From the NCBI RefSeq assembly GCF_044647545.1, contig NZ_CP172818.1: a stretch of 64,000 bases of DNA; one strand, 5' to 3'. The position numbers and the translations under genes were made by a program. This document shows positions 8,763 to 58,517 of the stretch, one piece after another. How positions within the stretch are numbered: the stretch's first letter is position 1; each line of letters opens with the position of its first letter. Origin of the DNA: Escherichia coli. GTDB lineage: Bacteria > Pseudomonadota > Gammaproteobacteria > Enterobacterales > Enterobacteriaceae. The notes under the pieces were generated by a model, which saw nothing but the letters and a program-made list of their open reading frames with translations, was not told where the DNA came from and searched no databases.

Positions 8763-8971
8763 TGCGATTCTCCAGACAGGGCAAATTCCAGCACATATTA
8801 CCCAAACTTATAGGTCGCGACGAGATGACGCGTTAACACTTCTGCAAAATTCAGGATAAATCCAGCCCCCTCACTTTTGGTGAATGGCTGAAGCCAACGT
8901 CATGTAGTGATATGATAAGAAGTATTCGTGTCTGAGATTGTCTCTGACTCCATAATTCGAAGGTTACAGCT

Positions 8972-11932: not shown

Positions 11933-13192
11933 ATGCTAACATCCTTTAAACTTCATTCATTGAAACCTTACACTCTGAAATCATCAATGATTTTAGAGAT
12001 AATAACTTATATATTATGTTTTTTTTCAATGATAATTGCATTCGTCGATAATACTTTCAGCATAAAAATATATAATATCACTGCTATAGTTTGCTTATTG
12101 TCACTAATTTTACGTGGCAGACAAGAAAATTATAATATAAAAAACCTTATTCTTCCCCTTTCTATATTTTTAATAGGCTTGCTTGATTTAATTTGGTATT
12201 CTGCGTTTAAAGTAGATAATTCGCCATTTCGTGCTACTTACCATAGTTATTTAAATACTGCCAAAATATTTATATTTGGTTCTTTTATTGTTTTCTTGAC
12301 ACTAACTAGCCAGCTAAAATCAAAAAAAGAGAGTGTATTATACACTTTGTATTCTCTGTCATTTCTAATTGCTGGATATGCAATGTATATTAATAGCATT
12401 CATGAAAATGACCGCATTTCTTTTGGTGTAGGAACGGCAACAGGAGCAGCATATTCAACAATGCTAATAGGGATAGTTAGTGGCGTTGCGATTCTTTATA
12501 CTAAGAAAAATCATCCTTTTTTATTTTTATTAAATAGTTGCGCGGTACTTTATGTTCTGGCGCTAACACAAACCAGAGCAACCCTACTCCTGTTCCCTAT
12601 AATTTGTGTTGCTGCATTAATAGCTTATTATAATAAATCACCCAAGAAATTCACTTCCTCTATTGTTCTACTAATTGCTATATTAGCTAGCATTGTTATT
12701 ATATTTAATAAACCAATACAGAATCGCTATAATGAAGCATTAAATGACTTAAACAGTTATACCAATGCTAATAGTGTTACTTCCCTAGGTGCAAGACTGG
12801 CAATGTACGAAATTGGTTTAAATATATTCATAAAGTCACCTTTTTCATTTAGATCAGCAGAGTCACGCGCTGAAAGTATGAATTTGTTAGTTGCAGAACA
12901 CAATAGGCTAAGAGGGGCATTGGAGTTTTCTAACGTACATCTACATAATGAGATAATTGAAGCAGGGTCACTGAAAGGTCTGATGGGAATTTTTTCCACA
13001 CTTTTCCTCTATTTTTCACTATTTTATATAGCATATAAAAAACGAGCTTTGGGTTTGTTGATATTAACGCTTGGCATTGTGGGGATTGGACTCAGTGATG
13101 TGATCATATGGGCACGCAGCATTCCAATTATCATTATATCCGCTATAGTCCTCTTACTCGTCATTAATAATCGTAACAATACAATTAATTAA
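11933..13192 (+). CDS. waaL: O-antigen ligase
   Basis: 419 aa polytopic membrane protein, AT-rich codon usage; position after waaC; length equals K-12 WaaL. Confidence 0.9.
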   Translation: MLTSFKLHSLKPYTLKSSMILEIITYILCFFSMIIAFVDNTFSIKIYNITAIVCLLSLILRGRQENYNIKNLILPLSIFLIGLLDLIWYSAFKVDNSPFRATYHSYLNTAKIFIFGSFIVFLTLTSQLKSKKESVLYTLYSLSFLIAGYAMYINSIHENDRISFGVGTATGAAYSTMLIGIVSGVAILYTKKNHPFLFLLNSCAVLYVLALTQTRATLLLFPIICVAALIAYYNKSPKKFTSSIVLLIAILASIVIIFNKPIQNRYNEALNDLNSYTNANSVTSLGARLAMYEIGLNIFIKSPFSFRSAESRAESMNLLVAEHNRLRGALEFSNVHLHNEIIEAGSLKGLMGIFSTLFLYFSLFYIAYKKRALGLLILTLGIVGIGLSDVIIWARSIPIIIISAIVLLLVINNRNNTIN

Positions 13193-13206
13193 GAATAAAC
13201 AAGTTT

Positions 13207-13232
13207 AAGAAGTGAGTTAAAACTCACTTCTT
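13207..13232. terminator. Perfect palindrome between convergent waaL and waaU (putative bidirectional terminator)
   Basis: aagaagtgagtt-aa-aactcacttctt inverted repeat overlapping the waaU stop codon. Confidence 0.4.
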
Positions 13233-14297
13233 ATCTATACAACTTAATCTCTTTACTGAATTAGTTAAAGTTTCAGTATCGATATCTTTTACCGTATATG
13301 TTGGGGATACTATTTGTATAGATTTATGATGATTCGGGGACCAAATTAAATGCGAGGGATATTCCGGAGTACGTGAATTAGGGTAAAATGCAAGCGTTGG
13401 TTTATGATAAGCCGCAGCGATATGAACAAGAGCTGTATCAACAGAAATGACAAAATCACTATACTTGGTCAACGCAACGGTATAAATAAACTCATCAAAT
13501 GGTAGTGTTTCGATTTCAAGTATTGGTATTGTCAATAAATCTTGCGGTAACCCGGTAAATATAATCCGATAATTTTCAAAGTGTGTTTTCACTTCTTGAT
13601 ATATAACTTTTATTTGCTCAAACGTAAGACGGCATATTTTTTTTGCACCTAATGGATTAATAATGACTATTCTTGTATCTCCAATAAATTCTTTTATTTT
13701 ATCTTCAACATCTACTGGTAAATGCAAGTCGTAGTTGGTGGAAAATTTACCCTCACCATAAATATGCTTCAGTATTTCTATTGCTCGTGTACTCATATGT
13801 TCTTTTAAACATTCATCGTGGGGATGGTAAAATGAATAGTAACGCTTATACCAATGATCAAAACCCAGAATGTAAGAATCTTTTAAACTTGATAATATTA
13901 AGCTATGCTTAAATGAGGGCATAGTTTCAAAGGGGTCTAATACAATATCGAACTGTAAATCCCGCAGATGCTTACATAGAGTAAGCATTTCAAGAAAACC
14001 GGTTGATTCTTTAATACAGAACTCAAATATATTTTTATTATTAGAGAGAAATTCCCCACCCTTTCTATTTGTGAGAAGAGTTATTTTAACCCCTTTACTA
14101 TAAAGTTCACGATAAATCGAACTTAATACAATTAGATCACCAAGTTTATTATTATCATGAATAATAAGGCATGATTTAACTTGTGCTGGATCTGTAATTT
14201 GATTATTTATTTTATTACGAAATAAAAAAGAAAGGAAATTAATCTTGATTTTGTTTATATAAAATCTTTTCTTTTTGTGAAAAGTTCCTAAGCGCAT
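13224..14297 (-). CDS. waaU: LPS core heptosyltransferase IV (RfaK/WaaU, K-12 type)
   Basis: 357 aa ORF, GT9-like; last gene of waaQ operon; length equals K-12 WaaU. Confidence 0.85.
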   Translation of the reverse strand: MRLGTFHKKKRFYINKIKINFLSFLFRNKINNQITDPAQVKSCLIIHDNNKLGDLIVLSSIYRELYSKGVKITLLTNRKGGEFLSNNKNIFEFCIKESTGFLEMLTLCKHLRDLQFDIVLDPFETMPSFKHSLILSSLKDSYILGFDHWYKRYYSFYHPHDECLKEHMSTRAIEILKHIYGEGKFSTNYDLHLPVDVEDKIKEFIGDTRIVIINPLGAKKICRLTFEQIKVIYQEVKTHFENYRIIFTGLPQDLLTIPILEIETLPFDEFIYTVALTKYSDFVISVDTALVHIAAAYHKPTLAFYPNSRTPEYPSHLIWSPNHHKSIQIVSPTYTVKDIDTETLTNSVKRLSCIDKK

Positions 14298-14329
14298 TTT
14301 TATACCATATTATTTTAGTTTCAGGATGA

Positions 14330-15181
14330 TTAATTAGCATAAGAATCGGTTGAAGTTCTATATTGCATTTTTTTTCTTGTCATATCTTTTGATTCTTCTG
14401 CACTGATGTCTTGAAGTTTAATAAATGGAATTACATCGTAAGAAATAGCTGTATCATCTGATAAATTATAAATATTAATATCTTTTACATTATCATGCAT
14501 AAAACGAAAAAATGGCAATATTTTGAATAAATCCCTACTTAATTCCGAGGGCATGGGATTTTTATTCTCATCATAGAAACGAGAACAGCTACCCGTTAAA
14601 TCAAGACCAGAACAAATAATCCGCGCATACTTAAGTGAATATGCGATTTGAATTGCAGCAAAGGCAATAGTATGGCATGAGCAATAACCAAGACTAATGT
14701 CCTTGCAAAATCCAACCAGACGACCTTTTTTAGACAACGGTACAGAGATCAGCAGTTCTTTGTGAATCTGTCTCAAAATATTAAATTTAATCTTCTTTAT
14801 AAAACCACCTTTTTCCCGACGGTAAAAGGACCGTAATACGAGGCAGTTCTGGAGGATATAAAGTTTATCTTCTTTGGAAGCGTGTTCATAAACGTCAACG
14901 TTTACTATGGTATAACGACTTCTCTGGCTAAATTTATAAAAATCATCACGACGCTGATGTAAAAATCGGACATCTGTAAGTACATATATAAAAGGAACGA
15001 TATTATTACTTAACAGATATTGCGCAGAACCATTGACAGCAATAATATCCTTTGTTCGTAATACTGACAAAGGTGTTTTTTGCGATGTAGGGCCCGAAAG
15101 AAAAATAATAACATCATCAGATATTTTATTTTCAATCAGGTTTTCAACATCTTTTTTGTCAATGTATCTAATATTCTTCAT
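14330..15181 (-). CDS. waaZ: LPS core biosynthesis protein WaaZ (KdoIII-associated)
   Basis: 283 aa ORF; position and length as in K-12 waa cluster. Confidence 0.8.
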   Translation of the reverse strand: MKNIRYIDKKDVENLIENKISDDVIIFLSGPTSQKTPLSVLRTKDIIAVNGSAQYLLSNNIVPFIYVLTDVRFLHQRRDDFYKFSQRSRYTIVNVDVYEHASKEDKLYILQNCLVLRSFYRREKGGFIKKIKFNILRQIHKELLISVPLSKKGRLVGFCKDISLGYCSCHTIAFAAIQIAYSLKYARIICSGLDLTGSCSRFYDENKNPMPSELSRDLFKILPFFRFMHDNVKDINIYNLSDDTAISYDVIPFIKLQDISAEESKDMTRKKMQYRTSTDSYAN

Positions 15182-15251
15182 GATAAACCTGTGAAATAAA
15201 TAACTCCGCTTAAAACTGTCCTGGTGAAGACATGTAATTGTGGGATTTTTT

Positions 15252-15950
15252 TTAGCGCGCTGGTTTCCCTTTCAAACGCCGCATAAAATTGCGCATTTTT
15301 TTACGATATACTAAAAGATAATAGCCTAGATCTCTAATCTCATTTTTAATACCGTAATGACGCTCTAAGTCAATACGATCTTTCGCTTTACGCTGCGCTG
15401 AAGCACGCTTTCCGGAGAGATCGATAATTCGAACCTCACCATTTTTTATAATGAAGTTACCACGATGGGGGTCGCCAGAAACCATGCCATGTTGATGTAA
15501 GGCATTAATTGATTGCTGAATTTTATTTTTTAGCGCATCATCAATATCGGGCATATCACACAACTCTATGCCATCAATATACTCGATGATCATGATATAA
15601 GTATGGACAAAACGTAAGGTTTTCCGTTCAGCCAATAAATAAAAGTCATTGAGTGTATTTAACCCTTCATTTCGTACTTTTTGGGTTTGCTCAAAAAGGC
15701 GTTCGTAATAATCACCTTTTAACAGAGACTTAAAGAAACGTTCGTTACGCTTAACTTTCGGAGAAAAAACCTTAAGAATCAATTTACCGTAATCGGTATC
15801 AATAAGCATAACTTTTGTATCATCAATAGAACGAAAAACCTTGATGATATTTATATTATAAGACAAGAAGTCATTTAATACATTGAGGTACTTTGAATTG
15901 TTTTCATCGGTAAAAACAACCAAGTCTTTGATCTTGCTCTTCTGAATCAT
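15252..15950 (-). CDS. waaY: LPS core heptose(II) kinase
   Basis: 232 aa ORF, kinase-like (HGDPHRGNF); position and length as K-12 WaaY. Confidence 0.85.
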   Translation of the reverse strand: MIQKSKIKDLVVFTDENNSKYLNVLNDFLSYNINIIKVFRSIDDTKVMLIDTDYGKLILKVFSPKVKRNERFFKSLLKGDYYERLFEQTQKVRNEGLNTLNDFYLLAERKTLRFVHTYIMIIEYIDGIELCDMPDIDDALKNKIQQSINALHQHGMVSGDPHRGNFIIKNGEVRIIDLSGKRASAQRKAKDRIDLERHYGIKNEIRDLGYYLLVYRKKMRNFMRRLKGKPAR

Positions 15951-15967
15951 AATAAACCAGTTAAATG

Positions 15968-16984
15968 TTATTTACGGTAATATTTTCGGCAAAGATAACA
16001 GACTCCTGCTATAATTCCTGAGATATAATGATGTTGCACTAAAAGATGTTTATATCTTTTTTTAAATTCAATAATTGATTTCGCATCTCGTGGAGAGTCA
16101 TCTTTCCAGGGGGAATTTTCTAAAGCTATTTTATAGTATTTTACCGATGGATAAATTGCCCATTTGTGCCACGGTTTAGTTGCACCTGTATAATGAATAA
16201 GAAGAGTACTTTCTGTAATCAGCTTTTTATAGTTTTGATGTGTTTTGTCTTTTAATTCACTTTTAATTGTATAAATTGTATTGTACTCACGAGGCAAAAA
16301 TAATGTCATCCCTTTCAGTAAGACATTCATAACATCCTGATCAGGGTATTTATAAACATTATCTTTACTCATAAGAATAGACAACGCTTTTTCTGTTAGT
16401 TTTGCGTCAGCCCATTTTTTTAAGTCTAAATAAACGACACCGGAATTAAAGTACTGCCCAAGTAATTCAGGATCAGACAACCTGGATACCGCCTTTTCTT
16501 GCATTGGCTCAACATCTTTAACAACAGCAGCAACCGCTCCATTTAAACCCAGATGTAATAGTTGGCTAATATCGCCTTTACAAACAACATCTGCATCAAG
16601 ATAAAGCAAACGATCAAGCGTTAAACCCAATAATTGAAATGCAAATAAACGGAAGTACATTGCTCTTGACCAGACCTGTGTACAAGGCAAGCACTGGAGC
16701 TTATCAGTGTTAATTCTATATAACGTGATTCTTAATTGGTTTTGCTCTGCAAGCTTTGCAATTTTTTGAAAAAAACCATCATTATAAACATCAGCAATAA
16801 TATAAAAATCAAGATTAATATGTCGATTATTTAGGACAATTGATGTGATGGAAACACCTACACCATCAAGATAATTAGCATCGACACCATAGGCAACATT
16901 TAAACATTCAGAAGTATTTATATTAGCTAGCCGAAAATCCCAGGCTTTAACTTTATCTATCTCTATGGCAGGAAATGAGTCCAC
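15968..16984 (-). CDS. waaJ: LPS alpha-1,2-glucosyltransferase (GT8; RfaJ, called WaaR in Heinrichs nomenclature)
   Basis: 338 aa ORF, GT8 family with DxD; position and length as K-12. Confidence 0.85.
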   Translation of the reverse strand: MDSFPAIEIDKVKAWDFRLANINTSECLNVAYGVDANYLDGVGVSITSIVLNNRHINLDFYIIADVYNDGFFQKIAKLAEQNQLRITLYRINTDKLQCLPCTQVWSRAMYFRLFAFQLLGLTLDRLLYLDADVVCKGDISQLLHLGLNGAVAAVVKDVEPMQEKAVSRLSDPELLGQYFNSGVVYLDLKKWADAKLTEKALSILMSKDNVYKYPDQDVMNVLLKGMTLFLPREYNTIYTIKSELKDKTHQNYKKLITESTLLIHYTGATKPWHKWAIYPSVKYYKIALENSPWKDDSPRDAKSIIEFKKRYKHLLVQHHYISGIIAGVCYLCRKYYRK

Positions 16985-17023
16985 AATGCTACCCTTATAT
17001 CATTACTTTATAGTTTCCCAGTT

Positions 17024-18043
17024 TTAATGCTTTATCTTTTCAATAAAATAAAAAAGATAGTTGCTAAATCCTTTTAGATATCTATGCTTTTTAAGCATAT
17101 GTTTTGCGCTATATCTTAATTGATTGCTATTGTTCGGTTTCAGCAACGCCGTATTCTTCCATGGCGAAGCATTTTTTGCCTCCATAAAGGCTTGTGATAC
17201 AGGATAATCCCAGGCCCAATCATGCCAGGGCTTGGTTGGCCCGATATAATGGATAAAAATAGTATCGTTGGTTACTGGGTTTATAAAGCTTTCTTTGAGT
17301 TGATAATTTAAGCTGAACTGGGTGTTATATTTAATATCAGCGAAAATAAGTTTATCCGCCAGCAACATATTTAACACATCCTGATCAGGATGTGTTATTT
17401 TTTTGATTATTTCTGGCTCATTTAGCATTGCAATAGCTCGTGCAGAAACCTGCTGAGCCGCCCATTGGGCAGTATTAATCAATAAAAAACCGGAGTTAAA
17501 GTAACCTTTAGCAATTCCCGCAACACCTAACGAATGGGCGCGTTTTTCCCACCAGTCAGCTTGCCCTTCTGTAACAACCATTGCGACTTTATCGTCAGGA
17601 AATGAGAAATTAATTAGTGGCTCAATAGTCCCCTGACAAATGATATCTGCATCCAGATAAAGGACTTTAGGCGCCTTATTAATAAAGTAATCTGCAATAA
17701 CAAAACGAAAATATATTGCATGAGTCCAATTCTTAGTGCTAGGCAATGAGCGCAGTCGATCACCATTAATCAGATATATTTTAATTCTGGTTTTATACTG
17801 CAACGCCAGGGCATCAAAATACTTACGATCATCATCACCAAAATAATCAGTAAAAATATGGAAACACAATCGACTTCCTTCATTATATTTTAATATTGAA
17901 GCAATCGAAATTCCGCAACCAAATAGAAAGTTTTTGTCAGTTCCATAAGCGATGTCCAGACAAAGATTTTCTGTTTCTACTTTATGATCATAATCAATAA
18001 CTGAATTAAGAAACTCAGTTTCCTGGAAAAACACCTGCTGCAT
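17024..18043 (-). CDS. waaO: LPS alpha-1,3-glycosyltransferase (GT8; RfaI/WaaO)
   Basis: 339 aa ORF, GT8 family, paralogous to waaJ; position and length as K-12. Confidence 0.85.
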   Translation of the reverse strand: MQQVFFQETEFLNSVIDYDHKVETENLCLDIAYGTDKNFLFGCGISIASILKYNEGSRLCFHIFTDYFGDDDRKYFDALALQYKTRIKIYLINGDRLRSLPSTKNWTHAIYFRFVIADYFINKAPKVLYLDADIICQGTIEPLINFSFPDDKVAMVVTEGQADWWEKRAHSLGVAGIAKGYFNSGFLLINTAQWAAQQVSARAIAMLNEPEIIKKITHPDQDVLNMLLADKLIFADIKYNTQFSLNYQLKESFINPVTNDTIFIHYIGPTKPWHDWAWDYPVSQAFMEAKNASPWKNTALLKPNNSNQLRYSAKHMLKKHRYLKGFSNYLFYFIEKIKH

Positions 18044-19122
18044 TATTTCCTCCGGGAAATAGCAGAAATAATTACCTTATGTAATCTATCGTAATACTTC
18101 GATTGGTAAAATTCATCGATCGACGCAGGAATTTTTTCATGTTCGATATGAATTTCACCTGCTATATATTTATTTAGAAGAGTTACAAAACCAGCAATAT
18201 CTCCCGGTTGATACAGATGGCCATTGACATCAGGTTGAATAATGTCAGCAGGCCCGGAGACACAATCGGCACTGATACAAGGAATCCCCCACGACAAGGC
18301 TTCAAGTAGGGTCATTGGGAAACCTTCAAAAGATGACGTGAGCAATAACGCACTCACTTTTTCAATATCTTGCTGGACCAATTCCCAGGGATATTGTTGC
18401 CAACCATACCAGACAATTCGATCATCAATATTTAATTCTCTACCATAAGCCTGGCATTTTTCGAAATCGGAGCCATCACCCAATACATGGAGTTTCCAGT
18501 TACCTTTCGCTTGTGATAAGCCATCAAGCAGGTCTTTAACTCTTTTCTGGCCTTCAAATTTCATACGCCCAACATAAATAAACGTTGCCGTTTCACCTTC
18601 CTCGGGCGCGGGAATGACTGAGTCTTTAGTTTCGACGGGATTAAAAATAACATTTATCGTCGATTCTGCTACACCTCGATTAATCATTTGCTGTTTAATG
18701 CCAGAGCTGATTGCTAAATGATAGTCGGCACAGGTGATATATTCAGCATGTTTTTTGTGATCTAAAGAAAAATGTGGCCATGAAAATACTGGCATATCAA
18801 TTCCTGATTTTTTACGTGCTTTTGCGGCAAACAGGCAGGAGATCACATCAATACAAATAACGATATCTGGTTGGTACTCCTGAAGCCATTTACTTAGAGC
18901 ATGAATATGTTTCGCCCGACGCAAAAAACCTAAACGAATATTGGAAAATGAACATGAGTATTTAATACCTTCCAGCCATCCCTTATCCATTTTGTCATTA
19001 CGACAAAAGAAAAACATTTCACTTTGGATATGTTGTTGCCTGAAGGTAGTAATAACATCACGGATGACAGTTTCCATGCCGCCAAATCCAGAAACAGCTT
19101 CGCCGATAAACGCTATTTTCAT
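18043..19122 (-). CDS. waaB: LPS alpha-1,6-galactosyltransferase (GT4)
   Basis: ORF 18043..19152 trimmed to MKIAFIG start giving 359 aa; GT4 family; position as K-12. Confidence 0.85.
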   Translation of the reverse strand: MKIAFIGEAVSGFGGMETVIRDVITTFRQQHIQSEMFFFCRNDKMDKGWLEGIKYSCSFSNIRLGFLRRAKHIHALSKWLQEYQPDIVICIDVISCLFAAKARKKSGIDMPVFSWPHFSLDHKKHAEYITCADYHLAISSGIKQQMINRGVAESTINVIFNPVETKDSVIPAPEEGETATFIYVGRMKFEGQKRVKDLLDGLSQAKGNWKLHVLGDGSDFEKCQAYGRELNIDDRIVWYGWQQYPWELVQQDIEKVSALLLTSSFEGFPMTLLEALSWGIPCISADCVSGPADIIQPDVNGHLYQPGDIAGFVTLLNKYIAGEIHIEHEKIPASIDEFYQSKYYDRLHKVIISAISRRK

Positions 19123-19165
19123 AGAAACTCTCATTAATTGAGTAAAACTCACTGTTTTAACGGTT

Positions 19166-20101
19166 TTATTTGTCTATAAAATCAGAAACAATCGTTGACA
19201 TCATTTTATCTGGACTGAATTTATATAAACTATCATAATCCATTGGTTTAACAGATGAGTTAATAAAATACTCTAACTTATCCCAATCATCATGACCTAT
19301 TATAAAAAAGCGAGATTCACTATAGATTTCTGAACCAAATACATTTATATTATTAGTAATTAATTTTTTATTGAAAAATAGTGCCTCAAGTATACGAAGA
19401 GTCCAGCCAGATTGGTTTTCTTTGGTTATATCAACAATTATATTAGCATTTAATGTTCTTCTAATATTCTCTTCATAAGATATTTGTTTTTCAATCAAAT
19501 ACTTTGAAGTCGTAGATGATGTCTTATCTTTGACAACATTAAAATCTAGCTTACATCCTAGTGTTGTTAATCTCTCGGCTAACTCATTAATTATTTGAAG
19601 ACGCCCTTTATCACGACCAAGGAAAAAACATATTGGCTGGCTGTTATTTTTGTCAGATAAACTATAATTTCTAATTTCATCCATTCCTATAGGAAAAAAT
19701 TGTTCTATTGCCTTGATCTTTTCATTCCCTATAAATCTATGCTCAAAATCATATATAATATCGAAATAATTCGCGTTATCAAGAATAAAATCTTCGCCAA
19801 CAGTATTTCTTAGAAGCAAAACTTTATGACAGTTAATATTTTTTAATATTTGTTTATTGATACCTTTATTAACAACACTGTCATTAATGATAATTATGTC
19901 ATCTTTTTTAATATCATTGAGGTAATGCTTGATGAATAATCGCCCCAGCCATGCATTATCCATCCCTATTTTTGATATTTTTTTATTAATCCAGTTATAT
20001 TTTTTTGGTGTTGTTATATTTTTTATCTTGTACTTTTTTTTCAGGTACTGAATCATTTTTAATTCATAATCTGCAACCCAATTTATAAAATAAATAGTCA
20101 T
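19166..20101 (-). CDS. waaS: LPS core biosynthesis protein WaaS
   Basis: 311 aa ORF, very AT-rich; position and length as K-12 WaaS. Confidence 0.8.
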
Positions 20102-20137
20102 AATAAAGTTAGTTCCAGTACATACTAATAAATATTT

Positions 20138-20935
20138 TTATAATCCTTTGCGTTGTGTTCGCTCTTTAATACGCTCGGCCTTAACGCTTGCCATGTTCAA
20201 TAAATTCTGTTCAAGAGACAATATTTTGCGTAAAGGCATCCCAAAATACACTTTCATAAACCGCCAGATATCCCGCTGAGTCAGGCCGATATTCATCGAA
20301 GAAAAATAAAGCCCAATAAGATCTTTATCGCGCCAACGACGTGGAACGCGCGTGCGAAGCTGCGCCCGGTGCAGGTCAATTACTGAAATTTTTAACTCCT
20401 CTTCCTTACCGGAAAAAGGCAAGTGCAGCAGGAAATGACAGATATAACAGTCACGGTGGTTAATGCCCGCAGCATGCATATCGCGCACCATCGTCGCGAC
20501 ACGCTTAATAAGCATACGCTTTACGCGAACATCTGGTGGGTTGGTCGCCCAGTCAGCACAGTAATCTTCCAGACTGATGGTTGGTGTCAGATCTTCGGTA
20601 ATAATAAACGAGGTTCTGGTCAGCGGATTAATGCCTTTTTCGCCGAATGCCACCCCATACATAGTATCAACGCCGACATCCCGCAGTCGATGAATCGCAT
20701 TCCATTCGCGGTCTGCGCCTAATACTGGCATCCGCAATGAGAGTAAATTTTTGATTATCTCTTTCAGGGTCGTGCCGCGATGCCATTTGAGAAAATAGCT
20801 TTTGCCCGCCATTTCAAAGCGCAGAGTGCGGCGAGTTTCCAGTTCACGAAATACCTCACCCTGCAAGGTTTTAACTTCCTCAAAAGGATCTTTACCGCGC
20901 CATAACGTGGCAAACGGCTCTTTAAGTTCAACCAT
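20138..20935 (-). CDS. waaP: LPS core heptose(I) kinase
   Basis: Trimmed to [14 protein letters not shown] start giving 265 aa; kinase motifs ([11 protein letters not shown]). Confidence 0.9.
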
Positions 20936-22052
20936 CCAGACCACCCGTTATGATGTCCGCTGCTTTCTCTGGCAGACTGTATAAATCTTGTGTATCAGCA
21001 TAATGTCGCGCATTTTCTGCCCAGGCCTGGCGCAATGAAGATTGCGTTAACGCTTTGCGTAAAATCTCATTCAATGTTTCCTGGCGGAATGGCTCAGCAA
21101 TAGCCTCGCCGCAATTGGCGTCAACAATATAATGCGCATAGCCACAAACGGCTGTTGTTAGTACCGGTAATCCTGCAGTAATCGCTTCCAGCAGCACAAT
21201 TCCCGCCGCTTCCTGGTAGGCAGGATGAAGTAATAAATCCGCCGCCGCCATTAATTCCGAGACATCGTTGCGCCCCGAGAAGAAGTGAACATTACTGCGC
21301 ACGCCGCGTTTTTCTGCCAGCGCCTCAAATTTTCGCGGTTTATCCTGCCCAACAACATATAGTAATGTGTTGTGGCGCAGCGAATCCGGTAACGAAGCAA
21401 GTGCTTCAATGGAACGATCGACACCTTTACGCGTGAAGTCTGAACCGACCTGCAACAATAAATATTGTTGTTCGGTTATTCCATTCTTCTTACGGAAGAT
21501 TTCACGGCTATTCGCTGGTTGCTGGCTATATTTACGATCAGGATAAATCCCCGGTGGCAGAATATGAAAACGCTCCGCTTCAGTCTGATAATGTTTCTGG
21601 AAATCGGCGATTTGCTTATCTGTCAGCATCAGCAGCTGTGTCGGCTTGCCCTGTTCGAAGGTTGCCCGCTCAAAGGCGGCATAATGGCGATAACGTGACG
21701 TCAGGCGATAGAAAAAGCCTTTCTCCTGCGCTACTTTCTCGGCATAACAAACATCAGCGGCATAATAAACGTCCAGCCCCGGCATTTTATTAAATCCAAC
21801 GACTCTATCGACGGGGTATTCACGTAAATGTTTTTGCACCCAGGCAAAATATTCCGCATTGCGCCCGTGATTGGTATGCGATTTAACCGGCACTTTGATC
21901 AGTTCAAATACATCAGGGCATTCGCCTTCCCACGACTGGGTATAAACCCGAACATGATGACCTCGGGCGGCAACTGTCTGAGCAATACGCATAAAATCGC
22001 GCTGCAAACCGCCAAAGGGAAAATATTTATATAAACAAAAAGCAACGATCAT
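20928..22052 (-). CDS. waaG: LPS glucosyltransferase I (GT4)
   Basis: 374 aa ORF; overlaps waaP start and waaQ stop (translational coupling). Confidence 0.92.
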
Positions 22053-23107
22053 AACGACGTACCTGTCGTGGAGGAGGGAAGTAATTTATCGACAGCTGCA
22101 ATGACATCTGCCGCCGGAATAACCGAAAGATACATCTCATTTCGGTCACGCTGATCGCGCGTTGGCATTTCCCGGTAATCTCCCGCCCAGAATTGAATCA
22201 TGTTATTTGACCAGGGACGCCAGAAAATATGGTCTGTCGCACCAAACAGCGATATCAGTGGCGTATTAACTGCAGCGGCAATATGCGCCGGTGCGGAATC
22301 AACGCCAATAAACAGCTGCGCATGATCGATTAACGCACCAAGTTCCGGGAAGGTCACCTTTCCGGCCAGTGCCGTTACTGGTGGCGTCTGGCATCCCTGC
22401 GCAATTTCATTGACGCAGGCCAGATCGTCTTTATCTGGGCCGGACGTCAGAACGACTTCATAACCACGAGCATGTAAGGCATCAATCACAGCGGAAAACT
22501 TGGCGTTGTCCCAGCATTTGAAGATTTGCCGCGCCGTAGGTTGGATAACCACATAATTTTGTCCAACACCAGCGTGATCAAGTTCGCGACGCATACGTTT
22601 CCAGCTTGCAGGCGGGTAACTCATGGTTGTCTGCTTCACCAACGATTCAAGTCCCAATGGCGTCAGCACGGATAAGTTACTTTCCACCACATTTCCACCC
22701 TGCAACGGCACCAAATGAGTGAAACTATTACGCCAAAAAGCAGACTGCCGATGATGATAATCCTGGGAAATTTTCACACGGGCATTTAATAAGCGAACCA
22801 GTATAGCAACCATCCATTGATCGGTAAGATTAACGATAAGGTCATACTTATTGGCACGTAATATCTTGATGAGATGGAAAAAGTTGGCAATTTTTTCTGA
22901 GGCTTTTGCTTTTTTATTTTTTATGCCGTAGAGCGCGTTAATCTCTGGATTTTCAGACAGGATCGGGATGGTGTCCTGATAAAGCAGCACATCGATTTTT
23001 GCGTCAGGGTAATTTTTTTTCAGCGAACTAATGACGGGAGTAGTTAATAACATATCCCCATGAAAACGCATCTTAATGAGCAAAATTCTTCGAAATGGCT
23101 TATCCAC
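22049..23107 (-). CDS. waaQ: LPS heptosyltransferase III
   Basis: GT9 family; first gene of long operon; ORF starts with GTG at 23107 (352 codons); true start may be the in-frame TTG 24 nt downstream (344 aa). Confidence 0.88.
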   Translation of the reverse strand: MDKPFRRILLIKMRFHGDMLLTTPVISSLKKNYPDAKIDVLLYQDTIPILSENPEINALYGIKNKKAKASEKIANFFHLIKILRANKYDLIVNLTDQWMVAILVRLLNARVKISQDYHHRQSAFWRNSFTHLVPLQGGNVVESNLSVLTPLGLESLVKQTTMSYPPASWKRMRRELDHAGVGQNYVVIQPTARQIFKCWDNAKFSAVIDALHARGYEVVLTSGPDKDDLACVNEIAQGCQTPPVTALAGKVTFPELGALIDHAQLFIGVDSAPAHIAAAVNTPLISLFGATDHIFWRPWSNNMIQFWAGDYREMPTRDQRDRNEMYLSVIPAADVIAAVDKLLPSSTTGTSL

Positions 23108-23156
23108 AAGTAACTCTTTTTGTTGAGATTATCCGATTAAGGTGAAGCAGAAAAAG

Positions 23157-23168
23157 CACGCTACCGCC
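23157..23168 (-). promoter_or_regulatory. ops element (RfaH recruitment site) within the JUMPstart leader of the waaQ operon
   Basis: Minus-strand sequence GGCGGTAGCGTG matches the ops consensus GGCGGTAGnnTG, located ~50 nt upstream of the waaQ start inside a ~410 bp untranslated leader. Confidence 0.75.
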
Positions 23169-23519
23169 CCAGGCTCAACAGCTACCTGAATACTGATACC
23201 GCACTGATATTGACGCGCTAGTGTATCACTTCTTTCGCGGCAATCCGACCCGAATGATTTTTAAGCACATTGTTGATTTTCAATAAAGAAATCAATCAAA
23301 TAAAATCATTAGCAACCATATTCTTTTACTGTTGCTCTGCGATTCCTTCCTGCACGTACTGCAGAAATCAATGAATCGCATAAAAATACAAAAAAAGTAT
23401 AGATGTTCAGCAAGAATTGGCGGGTAAATTGCTATTTAAGTCAAAAACGGGAAAAGTAATGGTAAAGCCACAGCTAAATACATAGAATCCCCAGCACATC
23501 CATAAGTCAGCTATTTACT

Positions 23520-25284
<1,765 letters not shown>

Positions 25285-27710: not shown

Positions 27711-28931
27711 ATGAGCCTGGCCGGTAAAAAAATCGTTCTCGGCGTCAGCGGCGGTATTGCTGCCTATAAAACCCCTGAACTGGTGCGTCGTTTGCGCGAT
27801 CGCGGGGCCGACGTCCGCGTAGCCATGACCGAAGCGGCAAAAGCCTTTATCACCCCACTTAGCTTGCAGGCGGTTTCTGGTTATCCCGTTTCCGACAGTC
27901 TGCTGGACCCGGCAGCCGAAGCCGCTATGGGCCATATTGAGCTGGGTAAATGGGCTGATTTAGTGATTCTCGCCCCTGCCACGGCAGATTTGATTGCCCG
28001 TGTTGCTGCCGGAATGGCGAATGACCTGGTATCGACGATTTGTCTGGCTACACCTGCGCCTGTAGCCGTGCTCCCCGCCATGAACCAGCAGATGTACCGT
28101 GCCGCTGCCACGCAGCATAATTTAGAGGTGCTTGCTTCCCGTGGTTTGCTCATCTGGGGGCCAGACAGCGGCAGTCAGGCTTGTGGTGATATCGGCCCAG
28201 GGCGAATGCTCGATCCGTTAACCATTGTGGATATGGCGGTGGCGCATTTTTCGCCCGTCAACGACCTGAAACATCTGAACATTATGATTACCGCCGGTCC
28301 GACGCGTGAACCGCTCGATCCCGTGCGTTATATCTCTAATCACAGCTCCGGCAAGATGGGTTTTGCTATCGCCGCCGCCGCAGCCCGTCGTGGCGCGAAC
28401 GTCACGCTGGTATCAGGTCCGGTTTCACTACCGACGCCACCGTTTGTTAACCGTGTTGATGTGATGACCGCGCTGGAAATGGAAGCCGCCGTGAATGCAT
28501 CTGTACAGCAGCAAAATATTTTTATCGGTTGCGCCGCCGTGGCGGATTATCGCGCAGCTACCGTGGCCCCAGAGAAAATCAAAAAGCAGGCCACGCAGGG
28601 TGATGAATTAACAATAAAAATGGTTAAAAACCCCGATATCGTCGCAGGCGTTGCCGCACTAAAAGACCATCGACCCTACGTCGTTGGATTTGCCGCCGAA
28701 ACAAATAATGTGGAAGAATACGCTCGGCAAAAACGTATCCGTAAAAACCTTGATCTGATCTGCGCGAACGATGTTTCCCAGCCAACTCAAGGATTTAACA
28801 GCGACAACAACGCATTACACCTTTTCTGGCAGGACGGAGATAAAGTCTTACCGCTTGAGCGCAAAGAGCTCCTTGGCCAATTATTACTCGACGAGATCGT
28901 GACCCGTTATGATGAAAAAAATCGACGTTAA
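27711..28931 (+). CDS. coaBC: Bifunctional phosphopantothenoylcysteine decarboxylase / synthetase
   Basis: Trimmed to [20 protein letters not shown] start giving 406 aa; flavoprotein N-domain plus CoaB C-domain. Confidence 0.95.
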
Positions 28932-33857: not shown

Positions 33858-36246
<2,389 letters not shown>

Positions 36247-47006: not shown

Positions 47007-47315
47007 GTGCAGTAAACATCAATCTCTTCACATTCTGCTCCCAGCAAATGATCAAGATGCAGCAAATCAGCAATATTCTCCGCGCTTAACATCACACCCG
47101 CGCCAGCACGCTTCTCAACATTTATTCTCCATTGCCCCAGCCATTGCTCAAGTAAACGTAAATCACGTTGAATGGTTTTTTCCGAAACATTTAAATAGCC
47201 GCAATCGTAACAATAGTCGTATATTCCCTTCGAGGTAAAAGGAATCGTAATAATCTGTTTTGTCGCGAGGTAATCATTTGCATTTTTACCCTTATCACAG
47301 ATTAAGAAGCCCTAT
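46953..47315 (-). other. Possible gene remnant: open frame without an ATG start containing a DeoR-like helix-turn-helix motif
   Basis: Minus-strand frame reads ...CGYLNVSEKTIQRDLRLLEQWLG... (47141..47197), resembling the VSxxTIRRDLxxLE motif of DeoR-family regulators; frame overlaps the antisense 3' end of yicH and has no in-frame start that would give an ORF of 60 aa or more. Confidence 0.2.
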
Positions 47316-47577
47316 GAGGAAGAGCTTCAGTTGCCATCTCTGAGGGTAAATATAAAGCAGAATAATTTCACAACAATACTCAAAATATGTCCGTAACCCG
47401 GACAGTGATAAAACAAAGCAAGGCGGTTAAGGGATATTTTTCAGCACAGATCACATTTTCGTGATGAATAATCGTGATCATGCTCGCAAATACGATGGAA
47501 GAAATATTTATTACCAGATGTGAGATTATTTACCGGACACGACACAAAACCATTCGTATCCGGCATTCTTCAATAGA

Positions 47578-57349: not shown

Positions 57350-57990
57350 GGTCTCAGCAAAAAAGAAAAAAAGTTGCCGGTTTAGAAACGGAACAAGGTA
57401 AAGCTGATGTACTTGGTGGTGGCGTTTTTAAAAAGCGCCTTCACCGAAATCGTGAGCGTGCAATTATTCTGCAAAAGGGGAAAAAAATTGTTTTTACACT
57501 TTTTTATATAAAAAAAAGGATATGTCAAAAATAAATAGCAAGAAACGGCTTGGTTTCCGTAAACTCCAAAACATTTTCCCCTCCCTACCAAAACCCAAAC
57601 AAAAAAAAAGATTAAAACAAAAAAACAAACAGAAATCCCCTAGACCCGAAAAAAAAAAATAAAAAACCCCCGCTTTTGGGCATTCCCAACCCCGCGGCCC
57701 GGGTTTCCCCCCCCCATGCTTTTTCTCCCCAAAAAAAACGTACTTTTACAAAACCCCCCCCACCAGCACGCAAAAACTACAACCCGGTGAAAAAAAAAAA
57801 ACACGGGAAAAAAAAAAAAGGAAGCCACCCCCCTTCGCCCCCATCCCAAAACCAGCGTTTCAACAGCACAAAAAAAGGAAAAGGGGCGCAAACCCCCCAG
57901 GGGTTCTTTAAAAATCCCCAGCATGGTGGAAAAAAAAGGGGGGGGGGGGGGGGAGTAAAAAAAAAAGAAAAAAGTCATACCAGCCCCAAT
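57350..57990. repeat. Low-complexity homopolymer-rich tract (A8-A12, C5-C8 and a G19 run); probably sequencing or assembly artifact
   Basis: Direct inspection: successive long poly-A, poly-C and poly-G runs, strand-asymmetric composition, no coherent coding frame; unlike any other intergenic region in the window. Confidence 0.6.
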
Positions 57991-58064: not shown

Positions 58065-58517
58065 TTAATGCAGCCAGTGAACGCCCTCGGCAGGCTGAAA
58101 GAACGCGTTATAGCGCATCTGAAAAGCATTAATATCCTGCATTTCAGGTTCGGTTTCGCGCAGAAAACCCAGCGCCAGCCTGACCTGAGCATCAGTAATC
58201 GGCGCGGCAAGGCGGGCTTTTTGTAAAATCCGATGCCATTGCAGCATGTTCTGTTCGCTACCATCGACAATGACAATTTGCCAGATGAGCAACACCTGCG
58301 CGGCGTTTTGCAGGTGCGACTCATCCGGGCGATGCAAATAACGTAAAAATTCGTCACCGGCTGACTTTCCCATTTGATCGACCATCGACTCCACGGGTAC
58401 GACATCGATGTTCAGCCGATCGCTGAGACGGCGAATCGCTTTTCTGGCCCCGGATGTCAGCACCCGAAAACCAATCACAAACACTACCGCCAGCGTGGCG
58501 AGCATTATCCAGATCAT
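58065..58517 (-). CDS. yicN: DUF1198 family protein YicN
   Basis: ORF 58065..58544 trimmed to MIWIMLATLAVVFVIG start giving 150 aa. Confidence 0.85.
   Translation of the reverse strand: MIWIMLATLAVVFVIGFRVLTSGARKAIRRLSDRLNIDVVPVESMVDQMGKSAGDEFLRYLHRPDESHLQNAAQVLLIWQIVIVDGSEQNMLQWHRILQKARLAAPITDAQVRLALGFLRETEPEMQDINAFQMRYNAFFQPAEGVHWLH

Follow-up and report, generated by a model that had tools for sequence, protein, structure and literature searches.

The window, a 64,000-nucleotide stretch of an Escherichia coli genome, carries the waaQ operon for the LPS core. Five of its genes concern us here, all of them co-directional neighbours on the minus strand and identified from NCBIfam models or by homology:

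22049..23107, minus strand: waaQ (rfaQ) coding sequence, heptosyltransferase III; open reading frame, PGAP annotation and NCBIfam RfaQ equivalog (712.7 bits against a cutoff of 467)
20928..22052, minus strand: waaG coding sequence, GT4 glucosyltransferase I, 374 aa; open reading frame, 90% amino-acid identity to K-12 WaaG
20138..20935, minus strand: waaP coding sequence, heptose(I) kinase, 265 aa, ATG start; NCBIfam RfaP equivalog (475.9 bits against a cutoff of 170)
18043..19122, minus strand: waaB coding sequence, 1,6-galactosyltransferase, 359 aa; NCBIfam equivalog (609.8 bits against a cutoff of 385), nucleotides 100% identical to MG1655
17024..18043, minus strand: waaO coding sequence, 339 aa; NCBIfam equivalog (581.8 bits against a cutoff of 461), 100% identical to MG1655

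The waaQ start given by PGAP is the GTG at 23107, and the position of the K-12 ATG is occupied here by a TTG at 23083. The starts of the downstream genes were judged to be correct on the basis of a conserved N-terminal register, upstream in-frame stops and curated annotation. The waaG ATG lies a fixed 21 nt upstream of a conserved motif in 125/125 sequences among the matches listed, and the N-terminal length of WaaO equals that of the R3-type protein. For waaP, an in-frame GTG at 20944 is peculiar to the allele in the window; the alleles of K-12, E. albertii, Kluyvera and Pseudescherichia have an in-frame stop as the codon directly before the ATG. The ATG is the start in both PGAP and the curated MG1655 annotation. 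The “trimmed” waaP start adopted in the preliminary description was thus borne out.

That description had also reported overlaps of 4 nt (waaQ/waaG), 8 nt (waaG/waaP) and 1 nt (waaB/waaO). These were found to be exact to the base, with PGAP and MG1655 in agreement:

22049..22052, minus strand: waaQ/waaG junction ATGA, -4 spacing, reading ...cgttATGAtcgtt; ATG at 22052-22050, TGA at 22051-22049
20928..20935, minus strand: waaG/waaP junction ATGGTTGA, -8 spacing; TGA at 20930-20928, ATG at 20935-20933
18041..18045, minus strand: waaB/waaO junction TAATG, -1 spacing, ggaggaaaTAATGcag; TAA at 18045-18043, ATG at 18043-18041, base 18043 (A) common to both

When compared with the NTGA, TRATG and NTGNNTGA motifs, all three junctions showed the corresponding stop/start arrangement. 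The same junctions are annotated in HS-01, MG1655, O157, ST131 and D9 wherever the gene pair is present. A reannotation of the starts that opened spacers with their own ribosome-binding sites would have undone this picture; instead, curated MG1655 and PGAP give identical junctions. Moreover, the K-12 waa pairs are already rows in a table of E. coli gene pairs, with spacings of -4, -8 and -1 (PMC10666635). The three overlaps are therefore real, ordinary and already known. The other six of the nine junctions in the operon have spacers of 17, 32, 36, 39, 43 and 70 nt.

Overlaps of this kind are common. In E. coli, 707/2,987 same-strand pairs (~24%) are spaced between -8 and +6 nt (PMC10666635), so that the number in the waaQ operon, 3/9 junctions in that range, is unremarkable (binomial P=0.36). 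The most frequent spacing classes, -4, -1 and -8, are enriched in prokaryotes and have been associated with coupling (PMC10666635; PMC12548453).

Between the window and the K-12 alleles, waaQ is 68% identical and waaG and waaP are each 80% identical, and the junctions are identical. Across species, the waaG start overlapped the upstream stop in 110/115 loci among the matches listed (102 at -1, 7 at -4 and 1 at -10); in the same matches, the -1/-4 junctions upstream of waaG comprised 63 different sequences. The gene upstream of waaG varies by lineage, being waaQ in enterics, waaC in Pseudomonas and an lpxL-like gene in Propionivibrio. Likewise among the matches listed, waaG and waaP overlapped or abutted in 95/108 scorable sequences; here, the WaaP N-terminal motif served to locate the waaP frame, automated calling being unreliable in GC-rich Pseudomonas. 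The species sample consisted mostly of related Pseudomonas genomes and included five non-E. coli enteric species and no Salmonella. This conservation is partly passive, as the TGA of ATGA is supplied by the conserved waaG ATG and the first base of an Ile codon. The overlapped waaG start, recurring across genera, is a mildly interesting example for reinitiation studies.

We next consider how each downstream gene might recruit ribosomes. The Shine-Dalgarno (SD) sites all lie within the upstream gene, and one of them falls in a predicted hairpin:

22061..22064, minus strand: weak SD-like AGGU within the waaQ 3' end, 9-12 nt before the waaG ATG; anti-SD duplex -3.8 kcal/mol
20941..20946, minus strand: moderate SD-like GGGUGG within the waaG 3' end, upstream of the waaP ATG; anti-SD duplex -6.6 kcal/mol
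18048..18053, minus strand: strong SD GGAGGA within the waaB 3' end, upstream of the waaO ATG; -9.5 kcal/mol
18044..18061, minus strand: predicted hairpin UAUUUCC-CGGA-GGAAAUA, pairing half of the waaO SD and extending into the waaB stop; extended helix 18032-18070

The distances of these sites are consistent with the annotated starts of waaG, waaP and waaO. The K-12 allele has AGGA where the window has the weak waaG site, and the waaO value also appears, as -9.48, in the table of Burkhardt 2017 (PMC5318159). Weak SDs are likewise found at waaQ and at most other waa genes in the window. De novo initiation would thus have a poor site at waaG, an intermediate one at waaP and a strong one at waaO that is, however, placed in a predicted hairpin. 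Predicted accessibility of the overlapped starts (0.23-0.37, n=3) was no different from that of the spaced starts (0.23-0.55), and a structural signature common to the three overlapped starts was accordingly rejected.

The operon is preceded by an RfaH-type leader:

23157..23195, minus strand: JUMPstart leader element upstream of waaQ; Rfam RF01707, 55.2 bits against a gathering score of 35
23161-23168, minus strand: ops 8-mer GGCGGTAG within JUMPstart; sequence match

Judged by these matches, JUMPstart/ops marks the waaQ operon as RfaH-dependent.

We consider the three junctions to be ordinary “spatially coupled” ORF pairs of the canonical -4 (NTGA), -8 (NTGNNTGA) and -1 (TAATG) types, lying within one RfaH-dependent polycistronic mRNA and making part of the downstream translation dependent on the upstream gene, a reading to which we assign a probability of about 0.7. 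The geometry, gene starts, overlap conservation, SD strengths and RfaH leader have been shown above; the occurrence and the strength of coupling are inferred. On terminating at the stop of the upstream gene, a ribosome would find itself a few bases from the downstream start, where it could reinitiate; alternatively, it could unfold local structure and so allow a fresh 30S subunit to bind the SD lying within that gene. By either route, translation of waaG, waaP and waaO would depend in part on that of waaQ, waaG and waaB, respectively. This dependence is probably greatest for waaG, whose SD is weak, and for waaO it may come about by unfolding of the predicted hairpin that holds the strong SD. 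Coupling would be local, running from waaQ to waaG to waaP and, separately, from waaB to waaO, and would not cross the six spacer junctions.

By analogy with pairs studied elsewhere, coupling at the three junctions is plausible. In reporter tests, 4/5 native E. coli pairs with 4-nt overlaps were coupled by termination-reinitiation, the exception being bioBF (PMC6728339). Coupling efficiency drops steeply with distance (PMC10666635), and in tested pairs reinitiation was down 40-80% at +14 nt and nearly gone at +38 nt. In the literature on translational coupling or nonpolar mutations in the waaQ operon, we found no direct test of these junctions; one paper merely speculates on a polar effect of a waaP mutation.

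The preliminary description had proposed tight coupling along the operon, across the transition from inner to outer core. Coupled translation as such is permitted by the geometry and favoured by the 4/5 precedent, but tightness is not established, and waaP and waaO could each initiate independently from their moderate (-6.6 kcal/mol) and strong (-9.5 kcal/mol) SDs. Nor can coupling span the whole operon, because 6/9 junctions have spacers of 17-70 nt, mostly lengths that greatly lowered reinitiation, or did away with it, in the pairs tested elsewhere. Nothing is gained by the reference to the core transition: of the five enzymes, two (WaaQ and WaaP) work on the inner core and the other three (WaaG, WaaB and WaaO) on the outer core.

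Published measurements in K-12 bear on some of these genes. Ribosome density on waaO was 0.62-0.74 of that on waaB in three conditions (PMC10746267, mSystems 2023, Table S3, which has rows for waaB, waaO and waaJ and none for waaQ, waaG or waaP), a ratio compatible with reinitiation at below 100% efficiency. Translation efficiencies were 0.53 for the overlapped waaO, 0.67 and 0.73 for the spaced waaJ and waaY, and 0.57 for the first gene, waaQ (PMC5318159); the Burkhardt 2017 tables cover these four, the other waa genes having failed the coverage filter. As overlapped, spaced and first genes are so alike in translation efficiency, balanced output would not need an overlap. In addition, the waa pairs are all marked “CMPLX not” in a curated supplementary table (PMC10666635), that is, the products of the overlapped pairs are not listed as a stoichiometric complex.

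Among the alternatives, the one that survives best concerns waaB/waaO only, where RNA unfolding, and not reinitiation, may underlie the coupling, the strong SD being sequestered in the modelled hairpin and exposed only by a ribosome finishing waaB. A 7-bp stem with a CGGA loop is predicted over GGAGGA, directly adjoining the stop, with a minimum free energy of -11.8 kcal/mol (z = -2.08), although 8/200 shuffles were equally stable. In its 120-nt context, z was -2.44, the lowest of the 11 starts tested; the mean unpaired probability near the start was nevertheless 0.37, which is not low. The junction does not vary among alleles whose identity over 701 nt is 88.7-100%. However, covariation cannot be scored on a hairpin sequence that is the same in all three E. 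coli alleles, and dual coding also predicts such invariance. The lower ribosome density on waaO than on waaB, despite the operon's strongest SD (PMC10746267), is consistent with a masked site, whereas initiating 30S subunits can open a stem of this strength. On balance, we regard this mechanism as possible but less likely than not.

A second alternative holds that the overlaps have come about neutrally, as a by-product of gene packing, each downstream gene initiating on its own embedded SD with no meaningful coupling. With all but one base of NTGA already present in an ATG, short overlaps would form readily and then be retained, and a mutation-only model reproduces most of the distribution of overlap lengths (PMC3887535). 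The frequency of overlaps in the operon at genome baseline, the usable SDs at waaO and waaP, the de novo initiation at the bioBF overlap (PMC6728339) and the similar translation efficiency of spaced waa genes (PMC5318159) all fit this account. Against it stand the coupling of most native -4 pairs tested (PMC6728339) and the weak SD of waaG. Furthermore, among the matches listed, lineages exchange -4 for -1 before waaG, and -8, -4, -1 and 0 between waaG and waaP, yet rarely open a spacer; where spacers do precede waaG (loci L068, L116 and L119), they carry a canonical AAGGAG. We regard purely neutral packing as unlikely.

A stronger form of the coupling hypothesis, in which waaG would be obligately reinitiated and waaO strictly conditional on waaB translation through the SD-sequestering hairpin, seems to us more doubtful again; if true, consecutive enzymes of core assembly would have their order or ratio hard-wired at translation. 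Finally, that the overlaps result from faulty annotation, with the true starts further downstream behind spacers with independent ribosome-binding sites, is barely credible and was rejected: an in-frame GTG at waaO codon 4 (18034) and the alternative waaP GTG, use of which would in fact lengthen the overlap, are outweighed by the constant waaG register, the stops upstream of the waaP ATG in other alleles, the R3-like length of WaaO, the curated MG1655 annotation and the SD spacing.

Partial, local coupling, the reading we prefer, has some consequences for mutant construction. The caution about polarity in the preliminary description is sensible, but this is an RfaH operon and RfaH suppresses Rho-dependent polarity (PMC6358824), and polarity arising from coupling would reach only the gene directly downstream of each overlap. 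A premature stop or insertion in waaQ, waaG or waaB may therefore lower waaG, waaP or waaO, respectively, through lost coupling. Deletions should spare the final ~20-30 nt of the upstream gene, where the SD and start are located, as is standard practice. The practical value is small but real, and the picture of the waa operon is unchanged.

Taken together, the three junctions most resemble the spatially coupled -4/-1/-8 ORF pairs described previously (PMC6728339; PMC10666635; PMC12548453), with which they share identical motifs (ATGA, TAATG and NTGNNTGA), co-directional genes in one operon and an SD embedded in the upstream ORF. They differ in that the waa products are not known to be complex subunits, the class enriched in short overlaps (PMC10666635), and in that the waa pairs are known here from their geometry. 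A second parallel is coupling by RNA unfolding in atpHA (Rex et al. 1994, as cited in PMC6728339; the model is outlined in PMC12548453): the SD and start of waaO are part of a predicted local helix that would be opened by a ribosome reaching the end of waaB. Unlike atpHA, however, the waaO structure is predicted, modestly stable and without covariation support, and, because waaB and waaO overlap, reinitiation is an equally good explanation. The third comparison is with the long LPS operons controlled by RfaH/ops, in which the RfaH C-terminal domain and S10 recruit the ribosome and of which waaQ and rfb are described in a review as lacking a ribosome-binding site (PMC6358824). The JUMPstart and ops elements before waaQ, and the weak SDs of waaQ and most other waa genes, agree with that description. 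RfaH, however, operates during transcription elongation and when the first ribosome is loaded, a layer separate from the stop/start overlaps and one that, if anything, would reduce classical Rho-dependent polarity.

The region was identified as the waa cluster of E. coli, which specifies the LPS core, here of the K-12 type, the nearest complete genome being E. coli HS-01 (99.3% identity across 6.2 kb). RfaQ, RfaP, WaaB and WaaO each scored above the cutoff of the corresponding NCBIfam equivalog model, and WaaG shared 90% protein identity with its K-12 counterpart. The features of the region were as follows:

23107 down to 13224, minus strand: waaQ-G-P-S-B-O-J-Y-Z-U, in that gene order
11933-13192, plus strand: waaL
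From 23520: waaA
23157-23195, upstream of waaQ: JUMPstart element with its ops 8-mer (Rfam RF01707, 55.2 bits)
22052-22049, minus strand: waaQ/waaG junction, ATGA
20935-20928, minus strand: waaG/waaP junction, ATGGTTGA, with the waaP ATG at 20935-20933 and the waaG stop TGA at 20930-20928
18043, minus strand: the A common to both genes in the waaB/waaO junction, TAATG
18061-18044, minus strand: predicted hairpin UAUUUCC-CGGA-GGAAAUA, containing the waaO Shine-Dalgarno (SD) sequence and adjoining the waaB stop codon

All three overlaps (spacings of -4, -8 and -1 nt) were read directly from the reverse strand, as the preliminary description had reported, and PGAP (HS-01) and the curated MG1655 annotation give exactly these boundaries. 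O157:H7, ST131 and strain D9 have identical boundaries wherever the same gene pair is present. The trimmed waaP start was also correct, in that the codon directly 5' of the ATG is a stop in the K-12 allele, E. albertii, Kluyvera and Pseudescherichia; an alternative in-frame GTG at 20944 is confined to the window allele. The waaG ATG lies 21 nt upstream of a conserved motif in 125/125 sequences, and the WaaO N-terminus equals that of the R3-type homologue in length. Re-annotation of the start codons, the finding named beforehand as able to refute the proposed coupling, therefore fails. The waaQ start is ambiguous in the window allele (23083-23107): PGAP begins the gene with a GTG at 23107, for a product of 352 aa, a TTG at 23083 stands where the curated K-12 record has its ATG, and the SDs of both candidates are very weak (-2.4 and -1.0 kcal/mol). 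Judged from the annotation of HS-01, with which the window is not entirely colinear, the sole other same-strand overlap in the window appears to be coaBC/dut (23 nt, 28909-28931, plus strand), outside the -1/-4/-8 classes.

The preliminary description had proposed tight translational coupling along the operon and across the inner-to-outer core transition. Neither part was supported, as six of the nine junctions have spacers (36, 43, 39, 17, 70 and 32 nt), and the latter framing does not match the gene functions. Inner-core modification is the task of WaaQ and WaaP, the outer core receives its first glucose from WaaG, and both WaaB and WaaO are enzymes of the outer core. In tested native E. coli pairs, a spacing of +14 nt lowered reinitiation by 40-80% and +38 nt nearly abolished it (PMC10666635). 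Given this distance effect and the spacers, any coupling would be limited to the waaQ-waaG-waaP series and, independently of it, to waaB-waaO. Of five native E. coli pairs tested at -4, four showed coupling, bioBF being the exception (PMC6728339). By analogy, the three junctions are likely to be translationally coupled to some extent, with waaG the most plausible case.

SD strength was assessed as anti-SD duplex energy. The SD-like AGGU of waaG is weak (-3.8 kcal/mol), that of waaP (GGGUGG) reaches -6.6 kcal/mol, and the waaO SD (GGAGGA) is the operon's strongest at -9.5 kcal/mol. Most other waa SDs range from -2 to -3.3 kcal/mol, with waaJ at -5.1, in agreement with a review describing the RfaH-dependent waaQ and rfb operons as lacking a ribosome-binding site (PMC6358824). 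The hairpin containing the waaO SD has a predicted energy of -11.8 kcal/mol (z = -2.08; 8/200 shuffles fold equally well). A ribosome ending on waaB would melt it, and the predicted fold thus weakly favors an RNA-unfolding model of coupling at waaO. Three E. coli alleles, with identities of 100%, 93% and 88.7% across 701 nt, all have the same hairpin sequence, which thus offers no covariation to test. Predicted accessibility was no different between the overlapped starts (0.23-0.37, n=3) and the spaced ones (0.23-0.55).

In K-12 Ribo-seq data at pH 7.6, waaB and waaO have RPKM values of ~18.6 and ~11.6, and the waaO/waaB ribosome ratio is 0.62-0.74 in three conditions with similar mRNA levels (PMC10746267 Table S3). 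This ratio is compatible with partial reinitiation but is no proof of it. With translation efficiencies of 0.57 (waaQ), 0.53 (waaO), 0.67 (waaJ) and 0.73 (waaY; PMC5318159), waaJ and waaY, which follow spacers, are no less efficiently translated than the overlapped waaO.

The waaQGP allele in the window is the majority E. coli allele, with nucleotide identities to the K-12 allele of 68% (waaQ), 80% (waaG) and 80% (waaP). ATGA and ATGGTTGA are kept in both alleles, in spite of an otherwise rewritten waaQ 3' end. Across species-representative genomes, a pattern scan gave at least 120 loci, chiefly Pseudomonas, with five enteric species; close relatedness among many of the genomes limits the weight of the following counts. 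Sufficient sequence 5' of waaG was available for 115 of the matches listed, and in 110 of these the waaG start codon overlaps the stop of the preceding gene (102 TGATG at -1, seven ATGA at -4 and one at -10), with 63 distinct -1/-4 junction sequences. The gene 5' of waaG is waaQ in enterics, waaC-like in Pseudomonas and an lpxL-like acyltransferase gene in Propionivibrio. For waaG/waaP, 108 sequences could be scored, drawn from the matches listed together with the window and four further E. coli references; they comprised 57 at -4, 22 at -1, nine at -8 (all enterics) and seven abutting, and ~13 had a spacer or lacked a recognisable WaaP start. That closeness is kept while the exact geometry shifts argues for some selective value. 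Conservation is also partly passive, since the conserved waaG ATG together with its Ile codon supplies the TGA of ATGA. In seven Stutzerimonas and Pseudomonas loci of the scan (L015, L017, L066, L108, L114, L115 and L119), waaP begins 43-184 nt past waaG, and the waaG stop still lies within NTGA (ATGA; GTGA in L119). This may be a vestige of a former junction, or reflect a short ORF that overlaps the stop.

Relative to MG1655, the cluster (11950-23527) is a mosaic, and one of its breakpoints falls inside the waaP 3' end. From ~11950 to 20200 (waaL through waaS, into the waaP 3' end) it is 100.0% identical to K-12, and from ~20200 to 23527 (remaining waaP, waaG, waaQ and the waaQ-waaA intergenic region) just 62-88% identical to MG1655, with flanks at 97-99%. 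A majority waaQGP allele (98.5% identity to O157) is thereby fused to a K-12-identical outer-core block. Antisense within waaL, an 80-aa GTG ORF (12757-12999, minus strand) coincides in position with yibX, a small-protein gene of K-12, in a stretch 100% identical to MG1655. Elsewhere, yibB (htrL) is missing between kbl and rfaD (8862-8923), unlike in HS-01, and ~0.5 kb extra relative to HS-01 adjoins yicI (47026-47555), matching part of a BglG-family antiterminator gene of other strains. Between nepI and yicN, 57360-57985 codes in other E. coli for a RelE/ParE toxin and an HTH protein; in the window the stretch is smoothed into long homopolymer runs (A10-12, G16, C8-9) and both ORFs are destroyed, the aligned region having 84% column identity overall to strain MS 21-1. 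Its appearance suggests an error of base calling or assembly in the source record.

With respect to polarity, against which the preliminary description had cautioned, ops-bound RfaH suppresses premature termination and ties transcription to translation (PMC6358824); the waa operon would thus be expected to show less classical Rho-dependent polarity. The overlaps could add translational polarity reaching the next downstream gene only, and our literature search found no experiment addressing this at the waa overlaps. Two more exact ops 8-mers (GGCGGTAG; 34063-34070 and 58484-58491, minus strand) lack JUMPstart context and are probably due to chance, since three matches in the window compare with 1.09 expected and 7/100 shuffles reach three.

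Short junctions are common in E. coli: 24% of neighbouring same-strand gene pairs (707 of 2,987) are spaced between -8 and +6 nt, the commonest spacings being, in descending order, -4, -1 and -8 (PMC10666635). The same three are enriched across bacteria and archaea (2025 review, PMC12548453). Three short junctions in nine are no more than expected by chance against this baseline (binomial P = 0.36). Finally, the supplementary table of PMC10666635 lists waaQ/waaG at -4, waaG/waaP at -8 and waaB/waaO at -1, each marked non-complex; the overlaps are thus already on record for K-12, as ordinary, catalogued features.
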